Part shown: piece by piece, positions 48,914-59,939 of the stretch
Numbering within the stretch: position 1 is the first letter of the stretch
How the letters are laid out: the number at the start of each line of letters is the position of its first letter
DNA from: Planctomycetota bacterium
Lineage (GTDB): Bacteria; Planctomycetota; UBA8108; SXIK01
Length of the DNA stretch: 64,000 bases
Assembly: GCA_965223845.1 (NCBI GenBank)
Contig: CBDCXR010000004.1
Location: 1,248,001 to 1,312,000 of the forward strand
Direction of reading: 5' to 3'
Made by a program: the position numbers and the translations under genes
Notes under the pieces: model-generated
Databases searched by the model: none
Told to the model about the DNA's origin: nothing
The model's input: the letters and a program-made list of their open reading frames with translations, nothing else

Positions 48914-49594
48914 GCTTCGGGTTCTCCTTCCTGCGTCCGCGTGGGCTCGGAGCGGCTCGGCGCCGCAAGAGCGGCTCCTAGAGCTCCGATTCACACGCTT
49001 CAACCGGGCGCGTCGGGAGATGACCTCACACTGCGGCCATCATTTCTCTTCCTCTTCTTCCTTTCCGACGGCCCTCTGCGCACCGGGATACACCGCCAGT
49101 AGACGGTCCCCGACCGGCTCTCACGAGGGACGGCGAAACGCGCCCGGGCGACGGCCATGGGACCGTCACGCCAAGAAGGAAGGTATCAGGGGCCGATCGT
49201 CCCGCGCAAGGAGATTGGGCCGGCGTCCGTCCTCGATTCCGGCGCGGAGAATGAGTCGCGAGGCGGTTCCGTCCCGTCGAACGTCCCTGGGGCGACGCGA
49301 TCGGGTCCGTCGCGGATGTCGCGTGGAACGAGCCGTGGGCGATCGGGGAACAACTCGCTAAACGGGCTTTACGTTGGACGCGCGCTCCGCCGCGGCCTCC
49401 CTTCGGCTAAGCTCTCGCGGCCGCGGAGATTAGGTGGCTCGGGGGCGTCCGCGGTGGCCGCGGAACATGGGTTGCTCGCGCGTCTGCGGAAGATCGATGG
49501 CGTGACGGCTCGCGGAGCCGTCCGTCACCGGGATGCCCGGGACCCAACGCGCCCGGCGATCCCGAGACGCAGAGAGTTCTTTGGGGGAAGGGTC

Positions 49595-52159
49595 ATGCGC
49601 AGTCCGATCTCGCGCCGGTTGACGGCGCTTCTCGTGGTCTCGCTCAGCGCGTCGTGGTTCGCCCGGGAGGTCGTGCCGGCGGAGTCCCCGGGACTTCCGC
49701 CGATCGTCTTCGTCCAGCGCGAGCTCGACTTGTCGGGGGCGAAGGTCGAGGACGTCGGCTCGCCGATCCATCGCGCGCGCTCCGGTCGTCTCATGTGGTT
49801 CTCGCCGGCGACGGGGATGCTGCGGCGGTTGGTGAGCAACGAGGGGGGCTCGCCCCGGATCCCCGTCGATGTGACGGATCCGGACGTCTCGTACGACGGG
49901 CAGCGAATCGTGTTCTCGGGGTTCGCTCCGCGCGAGAAGGCTTGGCGCCTATTTGAGATCGGCGTCGACGGGAACGGCCTTCGGCAAATTACGCGAAGTG
50001 ATCGAACGACGCAGACCGAGCGGTACGGCAACGCGAGCGCCGCCCTCAGCCGCTACGACGACCTCGATCCTTGCTACCTACCCGACGGCCGGATCTGTTT
50101 CGTCTCGACGCGGTATCCGGGCGTCGCGGATGACGTCCGCCGCCGGGCGACGAATCTCTACGTGGTCAACGCGGACGGAACCGACCTCCACCGCATCACC
50201 ACCGAACGTTTTGGCGCCGATACGCCGACGGTCGAGCCGTCGACGGGAAAGATCGTCTACTCGCGCTGGTGGCGCTCGATTCCGACCGGCGGCGCGCCGT
50301 CGTCTCCGGGCGAGGAGGCACTGCGCCCACCGCGTCCGCCGACCGTCGTGCCGGACGAAGGGGACGTCGACGCGGCGCTCTCGCCGAGTCCCGGCGGTCA
50401 CTACGGGCGCTCGAGCGATTCGTCTCGTGAGCCGGCGGCGGTTCGCGCCGAGGACCAGCCGATCTTCGGGCTTCCCGACGTCGACTTCGGCGGACTGAAT
50501 AGCTGGTTCCTCGCCGAGATCCGTCCCGATGGCGACGAGCTCGCGATGTACAGCGGCTTTCACCTCGACCGCGAGCTCACGCAGGCTTGGCGGCCGAGCT
50601 TTCGACGGGATGGCACCGCCCTCGCGCTCTTCATTCCCGAGTCGCCGCTCATGGGGCTTCCCGGCACGAAGGGACTGCGCGTTTTCCGGCCTGGACTAGG
50701 AGCACCGCTCGAGCTTGCGGGGCAGCAAACATTTGGCGATCCGACGCTCGATCCCCCCCGAATCCACTACGCGAGCGCGGTCGAGCTTCCGGACGAGCGA
50801 CTTCTCATCTCGGCGACCGTCGGCGCGACGCCTGCGGACACGAATCTCTACGTGCAGGATCCGAACACACTCGATCTCGCCCCCGTCTTCGGGACTTCGC
50901 GCTACAGCGAGCTCGACGCGGTCGTGGTCGAATCCCGACCCGTACCGCCGATCCTTCCCGACCAGCTCCTCGACCGACTCGAGGACGAAGCGCCGCTCAC
51001 GCTCGAGGAGGCGTACGAACGCGGTGGTTCATTCACGTTCGTCGTCGAGAACATCCACGCGAACGCGGCCGTAGACGTCGCGATGCCGAACGCGCCGCCG
51101 GTCGCGAAAGATCTCGAGATCGAGTTTTACATGGCGCCACAGCGAACCGGTCGCGCGCCCGATCTCCCGATCCTCGTCGGCCGCGAGGTGATCCCTCCGA
51201 GCGGGCGTGTCGAGGTGGAGCTGCCCGCCGGCGTTCCGCTCTTCGAAGCCGTCCGCTTCCCGACGGGCGAACTCGCGGTCGGACGCGACGGTCAGGTGTT
51301 CCACGTCGGCGGAATGAACTTCGGGCGTCGCGACACCGTCGCGCGTTGCGTCGGCTGTCACGCGGGCCACTCGCGGATGGCAGTTCCGGATGACTTCGAG
51401 TGGACGAATCTCGCCTCGAGTGCGCATGTCCGTGCGACCTCGAAGCGCGGAGAACTCGGGGGCGATCCCCCTGGCTTCCGCGAGCGGCAGCTCGTGGATC
51501 GATCGACCGCGGCGCACAGAGGCGAATGGATGGCGCGCGCTGGCCGTGATTCGGCCGAGATCTCGCTCCTCTGGCGTACTCCGCTGAACATTCGGGAGGT
51601 CGTTCTGCACGGGGTGAAACCGCACGGTGAATCTTCGCCGCCGCTTCAAATCGCGAACGCGACGCTCCGCCTTCGGCACCACGCCGATGGGACCACCGAG
51701 CTCGAGACCGGGCCGATCGTTCCGTCGGGAACGCGCATCGCCGTGGATCCGACTCTCGTCTACGATCGACTGGAGCTCGAGTTCCACGGGGATCAAATCT
51801 CCGGCAAGCATTTCGGACTGACCGGACCCGCGCTCGCCGAAATCGAGGTGGTCGCGAAACGCGCGTCGGTCATACCGCTCGGGACGTTCATCCGCGGCGA
51901 CGTCGATTGCAACGGCCGGATGAACCTCGGCGACTGCGTCGCGATCATCGATACCCTGTTTCGTGGAAAGAGGTCCTTCTGCTGCGAGGGCGCGGCGGAC
52001 GTCGACGCGGATCGATCGGTCAACATCTCGGATCTCGTCTACTCTCTCTCCTTCCTCTTCTCCGGAGGACCGCCTCCCGCGGCGCCGTTCCCCGCGTGCG
52101 CGCCCGCGGACGGGAGCGAAAGTGATCTTCCGTGCCGGAGTTCGTTCTGCGCGGAGTGA
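49595..52159 (+). CDS. HzsA-related exported protein: TolB/PD40 propeller + hydrazine-synthase-alpha-like middle domain + CxxCH + beta-sandwich + dockerin-like C-terminus
   Basis: Signal peptide; 'DPDVSYDGQRIVFSG', 'DDLDPCYLPDGRICFVSTR', 'NLYVVNADG', 'VELPAGVPLF', 'RCVGCHAGH'; C-terminal 'FIRGDVDCNG...AADVDAD.SVNISD...FLFSGGPPP'. Confidence 0.75.
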   Translation: MRSPISRRLTALLVVSLSASWFAREVVPAESPGLPPIVFVQRELDLSGAKVEDVGSPIHRARSGRLMWFSPATGMLRRLVSNEGGSPRIPVDVTDPDVSYDGQRIVFSGFAPREKAWRLFEIGVDGNGLRQITRSDRTTQTERYGNASAALSRYDDLDPCYLPDGRICFVSTRYPGVADDVRRRATNLYVVNADGTDLHRITTERFGADTPTVEPSTGKIVYSRWWRSIPTGGAPSSPGEEALRPPRPPTVVPDEGDVDAALSPSPGGHYGRSSDSSREPAAVRAEDQPIFGLPDVDFGGLNSWFLAEIRPDGDELAMYSGFHLDRELTQAWRPSFRRDGTALALFIPESPLMGLPGTKGLRVFRPGLGAPLELAGQQTFGDPTLDPPRIHYASAVELPDERLLISATVGATPADTNLYVQDPNTLDLAPVFGTSRYSELDAVVVESRPVPPILPDQLLDRLEDEAPLTLEEAYERGGSFTFVVENIHANAAVDVAMPNAPPVAKDLEIEFYMAPQRTGRAPDLPILVGREVIPPSGRVEVELPAGVPLFEAVRFPTGELAVGRDGQVFHVGGMNFGRRDTVARCVGCHAGHSRMAVPDDFEWTNLASSAHVRATSKRGELGGDPPGFRERQLVDRSTAAHRGEWMARAGRDSAEISLLWRTPLNIREVVLHGVKPHGESSPPLQIANATLRLRHHADGTTELETGPIVPSGTRIAVDPTLVYDRLELEFHGDQISGKHFGLTGPALAEIEVVAKRASVIPLGTFIRGDVDCNGRMNLGDCVAIIDTLFRGKRSFCCEGAADVDADRSVNISDLVYSLSFLFSGGPPPAAPFPACAPADGSESDLPCRSSFCAE

Positions 52160-53860: not shown

Positions 53861-54607
53861 TCAGCCGGAGTTCGCCGCCGCGACGTACGCCCGGACTCGC
53901 TCGACGTCCGTGAGCTTCATTTCGTATTCGGATGAATCTCCGCCGCCCATCGCGCAGCTCGGGTTGCGAAACTCCATTCGGCTCGGGACGACGCTCCCCG
54001 CCGAAAAATGGGCCTCCGTGGCCCGGGTTTCATCGAGCACTCGGCGGATATTGTGCTCCCGAATCCCGCAGCCGGGCATCACGGCTATGCGGCCCGCGGC
54101 CGTCTCGACGAGGCGGCGGATCAGAGGCGCGCCTTCGGGGGCGGTCGGCTTCTGGCCGGACGTGAGGATCCGATCGATGCCGAGCTCGATCAACGTCTCG
54201 AGAGCCTCGAACGGATCGCGGCTCATGTCGAAAGCTCGGTGAAATGTGACTTCCAAAGGTCGCGCGAGCTCCACCAGGCGGGCGGTACGATCGCGGTCGA
54301 CCGCTCCGTCTCCCGAGAGGAGGCCGAAAACGACACCGCGAGCGCCGAGGTCGTGGGCCGAAGCGACATCGCGCTGCATGACGTCGAACTCGAGATCGGA
54401 GTAGAGAAAATCGCCGCCGCGCGGGCGGACCATCACCATGACGTCGATGCCGCCCGCGTCGAGCGCGGCGGCGATCGTGCCGAGGCTCGGCGTCGTTCCG
54501 CCATCGGCGAGGTTATCGCAGAGCTCGACGCGATCCGCGCCGCCATCGCGAGCCGCGACGACACCCGAGATCGATTCGATGCAAACTTCGAGGACAGGGC
54601 GGGCCAT
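53861..54607 (-). CDS. cutC: Copper homeostasis protein CutC
   Basis: 'LEVCIES', 'GADRVELC', 'GGTTPS', 'MVRPRGGDFLYS', 'TFHRAFD', 'RILTSG'. Confidence 0.95.
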   Translation of the reverse strand: MARPVLEVCIESISGVVAARDGGADRVELCDNLADGGTTPSLGTIAAALDAGGIDVMVMVRPRGGDFLYSDLEFDVMQRDVASAHDLGARGVVFGLLSGDGAVDRDRTARLVELARPLEVTFHRAFDMSRDPFEALETLIELGIDRILTSGQKPTAPEGAPLIRRLVETAAGRIAVMPGCGIREHNIRRVLDETRATEAHFSAGSVVPSRMEFRNPSCAMGGGDSSEYEMKLTDVERVRAYVAAANSG

Positions 54608-54766
54608 CGGCGTGCGTCGGCCTCCAGGAAACGGAACGAAACTCACGCCGGCGGACGGATTCGGCGATGGGTTCACAGCCGAACCGAAACGTGGTTCGAT
54701 GTCGAGCGTCATTCACCGGGCGAGCCGAGGGGAACCCGCAAGCGAATTGGTGGAGGTGGAGACCAT

Positions 54767-55162
54767 ATGGCAACCGTGACGATTTGCGATGAAACGACTA
54801 CCGGCGAGCGAATGAGCGAATTCACTCTCGATCTTCTCGAGGAGACGCTCAGTGTCGAGGAGCTGATCCGGAGCCGGGTTTATCAAGAAGTGAAGGACTA
54901 CAACACGTCCCGCCCCGAGCTTTACCGCGGCCTTGTCGAGCCGCGCGGGGCGGAGCGAGTCCTCGGGGGTGGCGCGCGACTCGACCGCGCGAGAAACCTC
55001 GATTGGCGCGAGCAGTTCGAGGCTGCCGTGAGAGGCTTCGAGCGAGGTCGTATCCTCGTCCTCGTCGACGACCGCCAAGTGGAAGGTCTCGACGACGCGG
55101 TCGTCATCGGGACGGGCACTCGGGTCACGTTTCTCAAGCTGGTACCGCTCGTCGGAGGCTGA
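54767..55162 (+). CDS. Ubiquitin-like (MoaD/ThiS-type beta-grasp) protein with helical insertion and free C-terminal Gly-Gly
   Basis: GGAGGT RBS; 131 aa. N-terminal strand-strand-helix ('TVTICDE..EFTLDL..TLSVEELI'); C-terminal 'ILVLVDDRQVEGLDDAVVI..GTRVTFLKLVPLVGG*'. Confidence 0.8.
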   Translation: MATVTICDETTTGERMSEFTLDLLEETLSVEELIRSRVYQEVKDYNTSRPELYRGLVEPRGAERVLGGGARLDRARNLDWREQFEAAVRGFERGRILVLVDDRQVEGLDDAVVIGTGTRVTFLKLVPLVGG

Positions 55163-55215
55163 GTGCGCTCCCGATTCGGTGCGTTTCTCGGGCGAGGTCG
55201 AGGGAGCGAGCCCCG

Positions 55216-57783
55216 ATGGTGCCTCCGCGAAAGATGATCCGCGGCCGAGAATCGGCGCTCTCCTCGAGCACGAATTCCGCCGCCGACGGGCCGAGCGAGA
55301 ATGCGGCCGTGACCTGGGTCGCGGAACAGCTTCGCGGAGACTGGCTCGAGCGGTCGGCGCCGCGGCGGTTCGGTCGCGCGCTTCGCACGGCGGCGGGCGA
55401 GCGGGTTCAGCCTGCCCGAGCGGTCGTTGCGGCGTTCGCGCGTTGGCGATCGGGACGCCGGGCGAGCGAGGCGGCACAGATCGAGAGGTACTCGATTCAA
55501 TCGCTGCTCCTCGCACTCGCCCGCTCCGGCCGTGAGCTCTCCGACGAGGACGGCGCCGCGGTCGTCGAGGCGTGGCGAATCGCGCGCGGAGATGACCTCT
55601 GGGTCGATGTCGACGACGCGATCCTCGCTTGGATTGAACGAGCGACCGGACGAGAGTCGATCCGCGCGAACTCGCCGCGACTCGCCGGCGCGCTCGAGGA
55701 ACTCGCCGAGCCGCTCGCTGCCACCGAGCGCGATCGGGCCGTTGCGGCCGAGGTCCGCCGACTCCTGGCGACGGGTCTCGAACGAATCCTCTCTCCCGGG
55801 CCGGCCTGGGTCGCGGATGCGGCGACGACGATCGAGCGGGCGCGACCGGAAGTGGGGGCGGCGTGGCTCGCGCTGCTCGAGCACGCGGGCTCGCGCCGAT
55901 CGGCGTCTCCGAGTGCGGCGTGGACGAAAACCGCGAGTGCGATGCTGCGGGAACTTGCTCCACCCGAGTTTGAAGACGGTCTCGCGCGCTGGCTTTCGGC
56001 GTGGGAGCGCGAGAGCGCGCGCGCCGACCCGAACGACGACCGCCACCGCAGAGTGCTCCGCGGGCTCGTCTGGATGGCGAAGAGCCGCGCGAACGCCCGA
56101 TTGTGCCGCGTGCTCGCTCGCTGCGCCGAGACGTCTCGCCGGCGCGACGCGCGCGGCTCGGGTTCGCTCGCCGGCGCGGCGCTCGCGGCCCTCGAAGAGT
56201 GGGCGATGCGACCGGCGGAAGAACCACCGGTACGGGAGGAGCTTGCGAGCAAGTCCGATTCCGAATCCCTCGCGTCCTCGCACGCACCGGACGCGAGCGC
56301 CGCGGCGGTCGTTGAGCTCACCCGTCTCGCCACTCGTGTCTCGCATCGGTCGTTCCGCCGTCGAATCGAACGCGCGCTCAGTACGGCCGCGGAGAGACGC
56401 GGAGTTGCGCGAGCCGAGCTCGAGGAGCTGGCGACACCCGACTTCGGATTAACGGGCGTCGGGACGCTCGCAGTCGAGATCGGCGGCTGCATCGGTCGCT
56501 TGAGCATCGCGCCGACAGCACGGGTCACGGAGGGATGGGAGCGACCGGGTGGCCGCGTCCTCGGCTCGGTCCCGGCCGATGCGCGCAGCGCCGATCCGGA
56601 TGGCGTCGCTCGATTCCGCGAGCGTGCGCGGACTCTTCGCGGCGCCGCGAGCGCCGTGCGCGACCGGCTCGAGTCGCTTCTCGTCTCGGCACGTTCGTGG
56701 GAGCTCGAAGCGTGGCGGCAGCGCTACCTCGTTCAACCGCTCGTCGGCGCGATCGCGCAGAACCTCATCTGGGCGTTTCGCCTTCCCGACGGCGTTCGCC
56801 TCGGCATCCCTCGCGACGGCAAGCTCGTCGACGTCTCCGGCGAGCGGCTCTACGGCTTTCGAGAATCGACCGAGGTGCGGCTGTGGCACCCGATCGGCTG
56901 CGCCGCCGACGCCGTCGGGCGGTGGCGCGATGTCCTGGTCGAGGAGGAGATCACGCAGCCGTTCAAGCAGGCGTTTCGCGAAGTCTACGTGCTCACGGAC
57001 GCCGAGCTCAGGACGAGACTCTATTCGAATCGGTTCGCCGGGCACATCGTGAAGCAGCACCAGTTCGCGCGACTCGCGAAAGCGCGAGGCTGGGAGTATT
57101 CCCTCGCGGGGCGATGGACGTTCGGGAACGGCACCGCGGCAAAGATCCTTCCCGAGTGGGGGATCCGAGCCGAGTTCTGGGTCGATCCGATTCGCGACGA
57201 CGACGCGTACTCCGACCGGGGCGCCGCGCTTTACCTAAGCACGGATCAGGTACGATTCGCGCGCACGGACGCTCCGGACGCCGAGCTCGAGCTTCTCGAC
57301 GTACCGGCGCTCGTCTTCACGGAGGTCATGCGCGATGTCGACCTCTTCGTCGGCGTTGCGAGCATCGGCAGCGACCCGGGCTGGACGGACGGCGCACTGG
57401 CGCACCGGTTCGGCGACTACTGGCGCGGGTTCTCGTTCGGCGCGCTCACCGAAGCCGCGCAATCTCGCCGCGAGCTGCTGGCGCGCCTGCTTCCCCGTCT
57501 CGAGGTGGGTCGCCGAAGCCGCATCGACGGGCGCTTCCTCGTCGTTCGCGGCGACCTGCGCACCTACAAGATTCACCTCGGAAGCGGAAACGTGCTGATG
57601 GAACCGAACGACCAGTATCTCTGCATCGTCGAGGATCGCGGCGCGGGTTCGTCAGTTCCGGCCGCGCGACTTCCATACGAAGGCGATCCGACGCTGAGCC
57701 TGATTCTCAGCAAGGCGATCCTCCTCGCCGACGACCGCTCCATCCGCGACGCCACGATTCGGCAGCAGATCCGCGACTCTTGA
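55216..57783 (+). CDS. DUF4132 domain-containing protein
   Basis: Helical N-terminus; 'ELEELATPDFGL', 'RLESLL...W..RYL..PLV..IA..LIW', 'VRLWHP', 'QPFKQAFREVY.LT', 'SNRFA.H', 'FTEVMRDVDLFVGV', 'YKIHLGSGN'. GGAG RBS before ATG 55216. Confidence 0.88.
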   Translation: MVPPRKMIRGRESALSSSTNSAADGPSENAAVTWVAEQLRGDWLERSAPRRFGRALRTAAGERVQPARAVVAAFARWRSGRRASEAAQIERYSIQSLLLALARSGRELSDEDGAAVVEAWRIARGDDLWVDVDDAILAWIERATGRESIRANSPRLAGALEELAEPLAATERDRAVAAEVRRLLATGLERILSPGPAWVADAATTIERARPEVGAAWLALLEHAGSRRSASPSAAWTKTASAMLRELAPPEFEDGLARWLSAWERESARADPNDDRHRRVLRGLVWMAKSRANARLCRVLARCAETSRRRDARGSGSLAGAALAALEEWAMRPAEEPPVREELASKSDSESLASSHAPDASAAAVVELTRLATRVSHRSFRRRIERALSTAAERRGVARAELEELATPDFGLTGVGTLAVEIGGCIGRLSIAPTARVTEGWERPGGRVLGSVPADARSADPDGVARFRERARTLRGAASAVRDRLESLLVSARSWELEAWRQRYLVQPLVGAIAQNLIWAFRLPDGVRLGIPRDGKLVDVSGERLYGFRESTEVRLWHPIGCAADAVGRWRDVLVEEEITQPFKQAFREVYVLTDAELRTRLYSNRFAGHIVKQHQFARLAKARGWEYSLAGRWTFGNGTAAKILPEWGIRAEFWVDPIRDDDAYSDRGAALYLSTDQVRFARTDAPDAELELLDVPALVFTEVMRDVDLFVGVASIGSDPGWTDGALAHRFGDYWRGFSFGALTEAAQSRRELLARLLPRLEVGRRSRIDGRFLVVRGDLRTYKIHLGSGNVLMEPNDQYLCIVEDRGAGSSVPAARLPYEGDPTLSLILSKAILLADDRSIRDATIRQQIRDS

Positions 57784-57965: not shown

Positions 57966-59939
57966 ATGAAGAACCCCTGTTTTCGCTTGCGCTCCATCGT
58001 CCTCGCAGCGCTGACGATGTCGGTCGGCTGGGGCATCCGCGGCAACTTCGGGCACGAGTACGGAGCGATGTTCGCCGGCGCGATCGCGACTCTCGCGGTC
58101 GTCCTGGTCGCGGGGCGAGACGATTGGGTTCGTCGTGCACCCTACTTCGCGCTGTTCGGAGCGATCGGCTGGGGATTCGGCGGCTCGATGTCCTACGGGC
58201 AGGTTCTCGGCTATACGCACTCGGGTCACGTCCCGTCGGAAGCGTACGGCTTCGCTTGCCTGTTCGTGATCGGTTTTCTGTGGGCGGGACTCGGAGGGGC
58301 GGCCGCGGCGATCCCGGCCGTGCTCGACTCGCGCCGCCTCGCGCTCTTCTTTCGACCCCTCAGCTTGGTCCTTGCGGTGTGGAGCGTTCTTCACTTCGCT
58401 CTCCCGTGGGTTCACGAGACGATTCAGGCCTACCAGGGCGCGAACCGGCGTCACGAAGGCGCGCTCTACTGGCTCGACAGCGATTGGGTTTCGGTGGCGT
58501 GCATTCTCGCCGCCATACTCGTCTACGATCTCGCGCAGAGACGATTCTCGAAGTCGCCCGAGCTCGTCGTCTACGTTCTCGCGGGAAGCGCCGGGGGGTG
58601 GCTGCTCGCGCTCGGGCTCGAGCTCACGGGGCTCGCGCCGATCCTTGTCGACGCCTTTGTTCGTCACTACGGCGATCTCGCGACCTACAGCCGCGACGAG
58701 CTCGTCAGCAACTGGCCAAACTTCTTCGCGTGGATCCCGGAGCACCTCGGCTGGGCGGCGGGCGGGATCGCCGGCATCGGTGTCTACTTTGCGCGTCACG
58801 GAAAGTTCCGCCACGGAGCGGGACTCCTCCTCCATCTCGCGCTCGGGTGGTTCGTCGGCTTTCTTCTTCTTCCCGTGCTTCTCGACCTCCGCATGACGCC
58901 GCCGCGCGGGGACAATTGGGCCGGCGTCCTCGGGGTCTGGATCGGCGCGATGGTGTTCTGTCTCCGCCGCGGCTATAGCTCGATCGCGTACGCGTCGCTC
59001 GTCGGCGGCACGATCGGCGGGATCGGGTTTGCCGGTGCAGCTTGGGTGCAGATCCTCGGGAAGACGCTCGGGAATCCTGTCCTCGCGGCAGACGCGATCG
59101 CCGCCGGAGGGCCGGAGGGTGAAGCCGCGGCGGCCTGGGTCGCGTCCTGGCGACACTGGCAGAGCGCGAATTGGCACAGCATCCTCGAGCAGGTCTACGG
59201 CGCGGTGAACGGAATCGCCGTCCTCGCCGCGCTAGGAGTTCTCGTTGGGAAAACTCCGCCGCGGACGGAAGTCGGTTCCGCGCCGCGTTGGCCCGCGGTG
59301 CTGTGCGTGTTCTTCGCCGGACCGATGCTCGGTTACGCCAATCTCGAGAAGAACCTCGGCGACTGGACACGCGAGGTCGCCCCCGGGTTCCGACCGATTC
59401 CCCTCAACCTGACGGCGCCGCTCTTCGAGTTCGATCTCAGCGCTCGGGCGTGGTTCGCACTCTTTTGGTGGTCGGCGTCGCTCGTCGCTTTCATCATCCT
59501 TGCCCGGCATCTCCGGCGTCCCCTCCCCGTCTTCGCTGTTCGTCCGGAGGCGCGCGCGCAGCTTCTCTATCTCGCGATCGTCTGGCTCTTCGTTTTGGGG
59601 AACGCTGCGAAGCAGCTTCCGGCGTTTGGAGAGGGACGTCTCGTTACGGAGGGAGTGATCTTCCTGAGTGCCTGCGCCGCGACGCTGCTCCTCGTTTGCG
59701 GGAAGAACTCGAGTGCGCCACCGCCGCGAGCACCGCGCGACGGTGAGCTGCGGGCGCGAGTGCGAGGCTGGGCGGTGATCGCATCGATCGCACTCGTCGC
59801 CGTCACGCTCGGCGCCGCGACGTCCGTGCGCGCGATCTACGGCGACAAGCCGGTCGGATTTCGCGGGCCGGACATTCGCTTCGGTCCCGAGTCGAACGCC
59901 GTACGCCGTCCACTTCTCCGCGGCGTCGACCATCGCTGA
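57966..59939 (+). CDS. Hypothetical polytopic membrane protein
   Basis: Many hydrophobic segments; polar motifs 'GWGIRGNFGHEYGA', 'GGSMSYG', 'PRGDNWAG', 'NWHSILEQ'. Codon usage resembles neighbouring genes. Confidence 0.8.
   Translation: MKNPCFRLRSIVLAALTMSVGWGIRGNFGHEYGAMFAGAIATLAVVLVAGRDDWVRRAPYFALFGAIGWGFGGSMSYGQVLGYTHSGHVPSEAYGFACLFVIGFLWAGLGGAAAAIPAVLDSRRLALFFRPLSLVLAVWSVLHFALPWVHETIQAYQGANRRHEGALYWLDSDWVSVACILAAILVYDLAQRRFSKSPELVVYVLAGSAGGWLLALGLELTGLAPILVDAFVRHYGDLATYSRDELVSNWPNFFAWIPEHLGWAAGGIAGIGVYFARHGKFRHGAGLLLHLALGWFVGFLLLPVLLDLRMTPPRGDNWAGVLGVWIGAMVFCLRRGYSSIAYASLVGGTIGGIGFAGAAWVQILGKTLGNPVLAADAIAAGGPEGEAAAAWVASWRHWQSANWHSILEQVYGAVNGIAVLAALGVLVGKTPPRTEVGSAPRWPAVLCVFFAGPMLGYANLEKNLGDWTREVAPGFRPIPLNLTAPLFEFDLSARAWFALFWWSASLVAFIILARHLRRPLPVFAVRPEARAQLLYLAIVWLFVLGNAAKQLPAFGEGRLVTEGVIFLSACAATLLLVCGKNSSAPPPRAPRDGELRARVRGWAVIASIALVAVTLGAATSVRAIYGDKPVGFRGPDIRFGPESNAVRRPLLRGVDHR

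Follow-up and report, generated by a model that had tools for sequence, protein, structure and literature searches.

Small beta-grasp proteins that end in a free Gly-Gly (GG) and are encoded beside a larger partner are best known from the MoaD-MoaE/MoeB and ThiS-ThiG/ThiF systems, in which the activating enzyme (E1) is often encoded elsewhere. Urm1 with Uba4, the SAMPs with UbaA and Thermus TtuB with TtuC are at once sulfur carriers and protein modifiers; they too have a free GG and an unlinked ThiF-type E1, with no classical conjugating enzyme (E2) or ligase (E3), and ubiquitin-like (Ubl) conjugation of this type is tied to oxidative stress (PMC9574740). The Bil, Bub and type II cyclic-oligonucleotide-based antiphage signaling system (CBASS) Cap2/Cap3 operons encode E1, E2 and deubiquitinase together (PMC11601603). 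Here we analyze a 64,000-nt stretch of a Planctomycetota genome (GCA_965223845.1, contig CBDCXR010000004.1, positions 1,248,001 to 1,312,000; hereafter the window) that carries a gene for a 131-residue Ubl protein followed by a gene for an 855-residue protein with DUF4132 and DUF7737 domains. The pair has the layout of MoaD-MoaE and ThiS-ThiG, a small GG-ended beta-grasp protein beside a larger partner, but differs from MoaD-MoaE in an insertion of ~45 residues in the Ubl and in having the DUF4132-DUF7737 protein instead of MoaE. Whereas no giant partner gene is dedicated to the Ubl in the Urm1, SAMP and TtuB systems, the conserved partner is here the defining feature, and unlike the Bil, Bub and CBASS operons the pair has no linked E1 or JAB gene. 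We find that the pairing is conserved across phyla and suggests a so far undescribed module for protein tagging or sulfur carriage, with the following elements in the window:

54752..54761, + strand: Shine-Dalgarno-like GGAGGTGGAG upstream of gene 1, read from the sequence
54767..55162, + strand: Ubl gene (gene 1), 131-aa beta-grasp protein with an insertion at ~residues 49-95 and a free C-terminal VPLVGG
55163..55215, + strand: intergenic spacer of 53 nt, with GAGGGAG at 55200-55206 ahead of gene 2, from the sequence
55216..57783, + strand: partner gene (gene 2), 855-aa protein with DUF4132 and DUF7737, from Pfam

The two genes are paired far beyond chance. When the neighborhoods of the Ubl gene were searched with tblastn and a hidden Markov model (HMM), a DUF4132-family open reading frame (ORF) lay beside it in 19 of 20 loci from genomes and 60 of 80 from metagenomes; of the 50 metagenome loci with 1000 nt or more of downstream flank, 44 have one. 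The linkage on which the original prediction was built at this one locus is thus conserved across phyla. Of 401 genomes sampled from the phylum, 26 have the Ubl, 29 have DUF7737 and 22 have both, and comparison of coordinates placed the two on the same contig, a few kb apart, in all 22. The Ubl gene precedes its partner in 70 loci and follows it in 3, with overlapping ORF calls in 5 and opposite strands in 1, and the gap between the genes in relatives has a median of 13 nt and measures at most 50 nt in 60 of 70 loci, 10 of them being overlaps. All-against-all clustering of the neighborhood ORFs returned no third conserved gene, the other clusters being shadow frames of the pair itself. The pair also occurs on a Bacteroidota plasmid record, where it is annotated as 'hypothetical protein' and 'DUF4132 domain-containing protein', and in an Actinomycetota record. 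A single functional module, in which the partner is dedicated to the Ubl and presumably binds it, best fits this arrangement.

This arrangement has exceptions. In one clade (L077, L084 and L097) the Ubl with its VPLVGG end is intact while the partner is lost and a convergent gene for a Ste24-like membrane protease adjoins; in L084 a 63-residue remnant of DUF7737 directly follows the Ubl gene. Conversely, four DUF4132-DUF7737 genes (L140, L144, L146 and L147) have no Ubl nearby, and at 6 of 100 loci (L034, L080, L087, L104, L105 and L108) two full-length DUF4132-DUF7737 paralogues lie after or around one Ubl gene, which may thus serve several partners. A search of genome contigs with the single Ubl protein led to one locus, L001, that the family HMM does not match. 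At L072 (889-1905) a reverse-transcriptase-like ORF, which we take from its motif to be of the group II intron type, stands just 3' of the Ubl gene at the position expected of the partner. A weak match to the Ubl profile in another genome (G194, L152:3535-6532), without a GG end, is found downstream of a MoxR-like ATPase gene and also adjoins an SGNH-hydrolase-like ORF, both neighbors being named by eye from their motifs.

Structure comparison gave the 131-residue protein the beta-grasp fold that had been anticipated for it, with MoaD proteins as the best matches and SAMP1 and Urm1 also among the matches. The ~45-residue insertion, located between helix 1 and strand 3, is strongly conserved and, together with helix 1, forms the most conserved part of the protein. 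Fold and free C-terminal GG are shared with the ThiS/MoaD family, but judged by profiles the Ubl stands apart from that family: it is not matched by the Pfam ThiS model (PF02597) and so falls outside its membership, and a genome-wide ThiS search matched four other genes and not the Ubl gene. Aligned by hhalign with 17 ThiS/MoaD proteins of the source genome and its relatives, the Ubl reached a probability of 6%, with only its last 8 residues aligned. Searches of Pfam (at E <= 1), NCBIfam, PADLOC and PHROG gave no family match for it, and a search of the PDB by sequence gave nothing usable for the Ubl alignment.

The C-terminal end is nearly invariant. Among the matches listed, 118 of 120 homologues end in GG and 107 of 120 in VPLVGG. 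When 1.84 billion cluster representatives, clustered at 50% identity, were searched with the family profile, 2253 matched at E <= 1e-3, of which 243 also matched at E <= 1e-30; 139 of the best 150 end in GG, and these are all 139 whose match reaches the C-terminus, so that the conservation of the terminal GG expected by the original prediction is upheld. In the remaining 11 the match stops before the end of the profile, and they are therefore best regarded as fragments or frameshifts. More divergent relatives, encoded ahead of giant partners of 1600-1900 residues, end in GG, GA, GS or SG. The names attached to homologues are Planctomycetota, Meiothermus, Armatimonadetes, Nitrospirae, Verrucomicrobiae, Pseudomonadales, Kiloniellales and Thermoanaerobaculia. 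No fusion of Ubl and partner was found among 2762 longer candidates; the one that resembled a fusion, a 969-aa match (P0309), is a frameshift artefact in which a DUF4132 gene is read through into the Ubl. We propose that the free, flexible C-terminal Gly-Gly is the working end of the Ubl.

The partner protein, described at the outset as a DUF4132 protein of ~855 residues, proved to be 855 residues long and to carry a second Pfam domain as well. DUF4132 (PF13569) matches residues 446-626 (E 3.5e-47, 161.1 bits against a cut-off of 27) and DUF7737 (PF24879) residues 748-852 (E 3.8e-36, 123.6 bits against a cut-off of 27). Relatives of the partner number 5319 at E <= 1e-3, and both domains are present in all 120 of those listed. 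The coding sequence can be divided as follows:

55216..56550, + strand: variable N-terminal region (residues 1-445), with low identity and weak helical-repeat PDB matches
56551..57093, + strand: Pfam DUF4132 domain (residues 446-626), including QPFKQxxRExY (581-591), from Pfam and alignments
57016..57381, + strand: YugN-like or KA1-TBP-like alpha+beta domain (~residues 601-722)
57457..57771, + strand: Pfam DUF7737 domain (residues 748-852), weakly similar to the ubiquitin-conjugating (UBC) fold of E2 enzymes
57622..57624, + strand: codon of Cys803, in the motif H787-x4-N792-x5-N798-x4-C803, from a 44-sequence alignment

Conservation in the 44-sequence alignment is strongly polarized, with column identity to relatives of 12-34% over residues 1-450 and 50-67% over 551-850, and with the invariant residues concentrated between 557 and 851. 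The N-terminal region has designed helical repeats as its sole, weak PDB sequence matches, and in giant relatives HEAT_2 and DUF5724 occupy its position; by these sequence matches, residues 1-445 probably form helical repeats. The giants (L048, L049, L148 and L149, from genomes G173, G157, G359 and G362) are 1600-1900 residues long; in them DUF4132 and DUF7737 are preceded by HEAT_2 and by DUF5724, which spans ~1200 residues. The Ubls next to these giants end in LAGA or LAGG, and the giants have no Cys803. Because the N-terminus is variable and tandem paralogues occur behind one Ubl, we suggest that the N-terminus sets specificity. Residues that stay invariant even when giants and solo forms are included are QPFKQxxRExY (581-591), R624, W626, E703, R706 and D707, joined family-wide by Y784, S790, LP (819-820), D824 and D840 but not by Cys803.

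An AlphaFold2 model of residues 550-855 (mean predicted local distance difference test, pLDDT, 78.5; predicted template-modeling score, pTM, 0.54) has DUF7737 as its second domain, composed of helices, a beta-meander of five strands, a long loop that is disordered in part, and two final helices. In the model this domain appears weakly E2-like, of the UBC fold. Foldseek with the modeled core found no match at E <= 0.001, and Pfam at E <= 10 with 21 core sequences returned DUF4132, DUF7737 and one chance row but no E2-type family, so that we treat the E2-like character as a lead. By sequence the PDB held nothing usable for the partner alignments, and the Protein Atlas held DUF4132 clusters, with nothing beyond them once these were set aside.

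Within DUF7737, the H787-x4-N792-x5-N798-x4-C803 motif is invariant in the 44-sequence alignment, and Cys803 is co-retained with the VPLVGG-type Ubl. Of 48 partner ORFs beside Ubls of the L[VTI]GG type, 47 have Cys at column 803, and H787, N792 and N798/D798 are retained in the same ORFs; the one ORF that lacks the Cys is the second copy in L105, a degenerate gene in which Pro replaces Cys803. Where the neighboring Ubl is divergent, the partner has Y, N, S, A or V at this column. Among four informative solo genes the residue is I, R or A, with Cys in L146 only, and the ORFs without a Ubl that reach contig ends (L141, L142 and L143) have V, R and P. On a quick tree, three changes are enough to explain the non-Cys state, and the association of Cys with the Ubl is therefore a clade-level correlation and not a set of many independent events. 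Cys803 (model residue 254) follows the last strand of the meander, and a rough proportional mapping would place the catalytic Cys of an E2 nearer the invariant LP[FY]EGD loop than Cys803.

Activation of a GG tail calls attention to the E1 genes of the source genome, which has three ThiF-family genes, one MoaE match, two ThiG matches and one Prok-JAB match (C4:6272881, the only one in the genome), all outside the window (C4:1248001-1312000). The statement that the window holds no E1, JAB, MoaE or ThiG gene therefore stands, while the part of it that concerns E2 is less secure: UQ_con, Prok-E2_A and Prok-E2_B had no match in the genome but had none in the control genomes either, leaving the search with no positive control. 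One of the three E1 genes encodes a rhodanese-MoeB fusion that reaches its equivalog score and adjoins a ThiS-like gene, the second adjoins another ThiS-like gene, and the third is an orphan 210 kb from the pair. The genes for MoaD and MoaE adjoin each other, as do those for ThiS and ThiG, at places far from the pair, and because these canonical pairs exist elsewhere in the genome the Ubl is not needed for either. The orphan was considered as a dedicated E1 and rejected, as it is common (a MoeB/ThiF-type gene of this kind is present in 239 of the 401 genomes) and does not track the Ubl, being absent at E <= 1e-40 from 6 of 17 strong Ubl carriers.

With the three ThiF-family proteins of the source genome as queries, a ThiF-type gene was found near the Ubl in 1 of 101 sequences. 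This is a truncated ThiF/MoeB-like ORF (L098:189-1316) that directly follows the Ubl gene in place of the DUF4132 gene and is 47% identical to the rhodanese-MoeB of the source genome over 131 residues. Every one of the 21 carrier genomes tested has ThiF-family matches elsewhere, which makes E1 action in trans possible, as is common for MoaD-MoaE operons, and the pathway, envisaged in the original prediction as possibly 'minimal two-component', may draw on a further component. In one carrier, G309 (~90% complete), the only ThiF matches are two weak fragments that contain an internal TGA (contig C7:34397-34962), yet its Ubl-DUF4132 pair is intact.

A similar pair is described in Deinococcus radiodurans, where a small MoaD/SAMP1-like protein, so described by predicted structure only, is encoded directly upstream of a DUF4132 protein (DR_A0165-DR_A0166). 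In the literature, the drA0165-drA0166 operon is a DdrO target with a radiation/desiccation response motif (RDRM) at -83 and is strongly upregulated on DdrO depletion, and mitomycin C induces the DUF4132 protein DRA0166 only with IrrE present (PMC8533742). The small protein DR_A0165 is induced by irradiation and H2O2; its deletion leads to more and its overexpression to less H2O2 resistance, it pulls down thioredoxin DR_A0164, and its predicted structure resembles 5MPO, 3PO0, 1WGK, 1VJK and 6JC0, that is, MoaD/SAMP1-like proteins (PMC9650054). The papers call DR_A0165 Deinococcus-specific and do not link it to its DUF4132 partner (PMC8533742, PMC9650054), and they disagree on the upstream region, one giving the -83 motif (PMC8533742) and the other no RDRM (PMC9650054). 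In our comparison the best structural matches of the window Ubl overlap with those reported for DR_A0165, and both DUF4132 and DUF7737 match in the D. radiodurans control genome. A stress link may likewise hold for the window's pair. Control of the Ubl family by the SOS or radiation/desiccation response was considered and set aside, since six LexA/RDRM consensus patterns had no occurrence in 92 upstream regions of the family.

E. coli YehI/MolR, encoded beside MoxR, vWA and SWIM proteins (yehLMPQ), has the DUF4132 domain in common with the partner, and to that extent the comparison made in the original prediction holds. It does not extend further: the partner has no WGR domain, the immediate flanking genes include no MoxR or vWA gene, and YehK, the small neighbor of YehI, is not GG-ended. 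DUF7737 motifs were not seen by eye in the C-terminal tail of YehI, of which no Pfam scan was made. The suggestion of a phage-defense role found no support, as neither protein matched a PADLOC 2.0 family at E <= 1 (0 families) and a phage collection had no match.

Taken together, our preferred reading, which we advance tentatively and at somewhat less than an even chance, is that the Ubl is activated by an E1 in trans and its tail is then captured on the E2-like DUF7737 domain. The tail would be adenylated by an unlinked E1 of the ThiF/MoeB type that has a housekeeping role, and then engaged by the weakly E2-like DUF7737 domain, with Cys803 as the putative thioester (or persulfide) acceptor. 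Acting as an E2/E3 hybrid, the giant would under stress transfer the Ubl either onto itself or onto a target that it has bound, and its variable helical N-terminal region would probably select the target or sense the signal. UBE2O and BIRC6 are giant E2/E3 hybrids of eukaryotes; if DUF7737 is E2-like, the layout would be alike, with a large helical scaffold and a UBC-type domain near the C-terminus, though there is no sequence relation.

Whether any covalent chemistry would be involved is the question on which the most serious rival turns. In this somewhat unlikely alternative the Ubl is a non-covalent regulatory subunit whose tail plugs a pocket of DUF7737, in the manner of a ubiquitin E2 variant (UEV) or RWD domain, and switches the giant scaffold on or off with no adenylation or transfer. 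Weak UBC-like folds that lack catalytic motifs typify UEV and RWD binders, and it fits this alternative that divergent tails tolerate GA, GS and SG, that the giants dispense with the Cys and still keep a Ubl neighbor, and that no E1, E2 or protease is linked; the high conservation of helix 1 and the insertion suggests a large protein interface. Such a subunit would hardly call for an exact GG with the stop directly after it in all 139 complete representatives, nor for the co-retention of H787, N792, N798 and C803 in the main clade. Ubl and partner are moreover always separate proteins, whereas a subunit that only binds could readily have become fused. The divergent GA, GS and SG tails also weigh against a sulfur-carrier pair of the MoaD-MoaE type, which we consider unlikely. 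There, a shared MoeB/MoeZ-like E1 would thiocarboxylate the GG, and the DUF4132-DUF7737 protein would be the 'synthase' or acceptor whose pocket takes the tail, passing sulfur to a small molecule, an RNA or a protein persulfide. Although the MoaD-like layout and structural matches are what such a pair would have, the Pfam ThiS model does not match, the hhalign probability is only 6% against the 17 local ThiS/MoaD proteins, and no sulfur-handling enzyme fold is seen in the modeled core. Nor do known sulfur-insertion enzymes resemble these partners, which are 800-1900 residues long, have variable helical N-termini and at 6 of 100 loci occur as tandem paralogues.

Two further readings dispense, wholly or in part, with a canonical E1. 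It is improbable, in our estimate, that the pair is a widespread, self-contained Ubl system in which a stress-induced giant with a degenerate E2-like DUF7737 domain charges itself with the dedicated GG-ended Ubl and passes it on while its fast-evolving N-terminal repeats choose targets, either with no canonical E1 or with one borrowed from a sulfur carrier; Cys-less giant relatives would then have become UEV-like receptors of the Ubl. That the DUF4132-DUF7737 protein is a new E1-independent activating enzyme, which both activates and transfers the Ubl in a self-contained two-gene system, seems to us highly improbable. The missing linked E1 in 100 of 101 sequences, the carrier G309 with its weak, interrupted ThiF matches and the dense invariant charged residues of the core (K584, R588, E589, E703, R706, D707, D824 and D840) are in keeping with it, but no nucleotide-binding fold or motif appears in the modeled core (residues 550-855) or by Pfam, and ThiF genes are present in all 21 carriers.

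Returning to the window itself, coordinates and direct reading of the sequence agree with what had been claimed for the locus: the two genes are co-oriented across a 53-nt gap, each with its own ribosome-binding site just 5' of its ATG (GGAGG at 54752-54756 and GAGGGAG at 55200-55206), and are divergent from cutC (CutC), located at 53861-54712 on the opposite strand. The first gene does encode 131 residues that end in LVPLVGG before the stop, the full C-terminus reading ...FLKLVPLVGG. A scan of the locus found 0 sigma-70-like promoter sites and no terminator-like site between the two genes or after them. The remaining flanking genes encode a DUF1501 protein, an SDR protein and two products without a Pfam family; the latter are large ORFs at 49157-52156 (1000 aa) and 57966-59936 (657 aa), the second of which, judged by eye, has the look of a multi-pass membrane protein.

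Our literature search found no description of a Ubl-DUF4132 pairing, the mentions of DUF4132 not being about a Ubl, and no mention of DUF7737 or DUF5724; in term checks, the beta-grasp surveys of 2006 and 2007 did not mention MolR, YehI or DRA0165/6. The Ubl family (2253 clusters) and the partner family (thousands) span many phyla, and DUF4132, DUF7737 and DUF5724 have no known function. If the proposed tail chemistry is true, the pair would represent a Ubl pathway of bacteria that has an E2-like giant but neither an E1 nor a protease of its own. Such a pathway would bridge the gap that separates sulfur carriers from complete cascades of the ubiquitin type, and would provide a molecular handle on the stress phenotypes reported for the Deinococcus locus.

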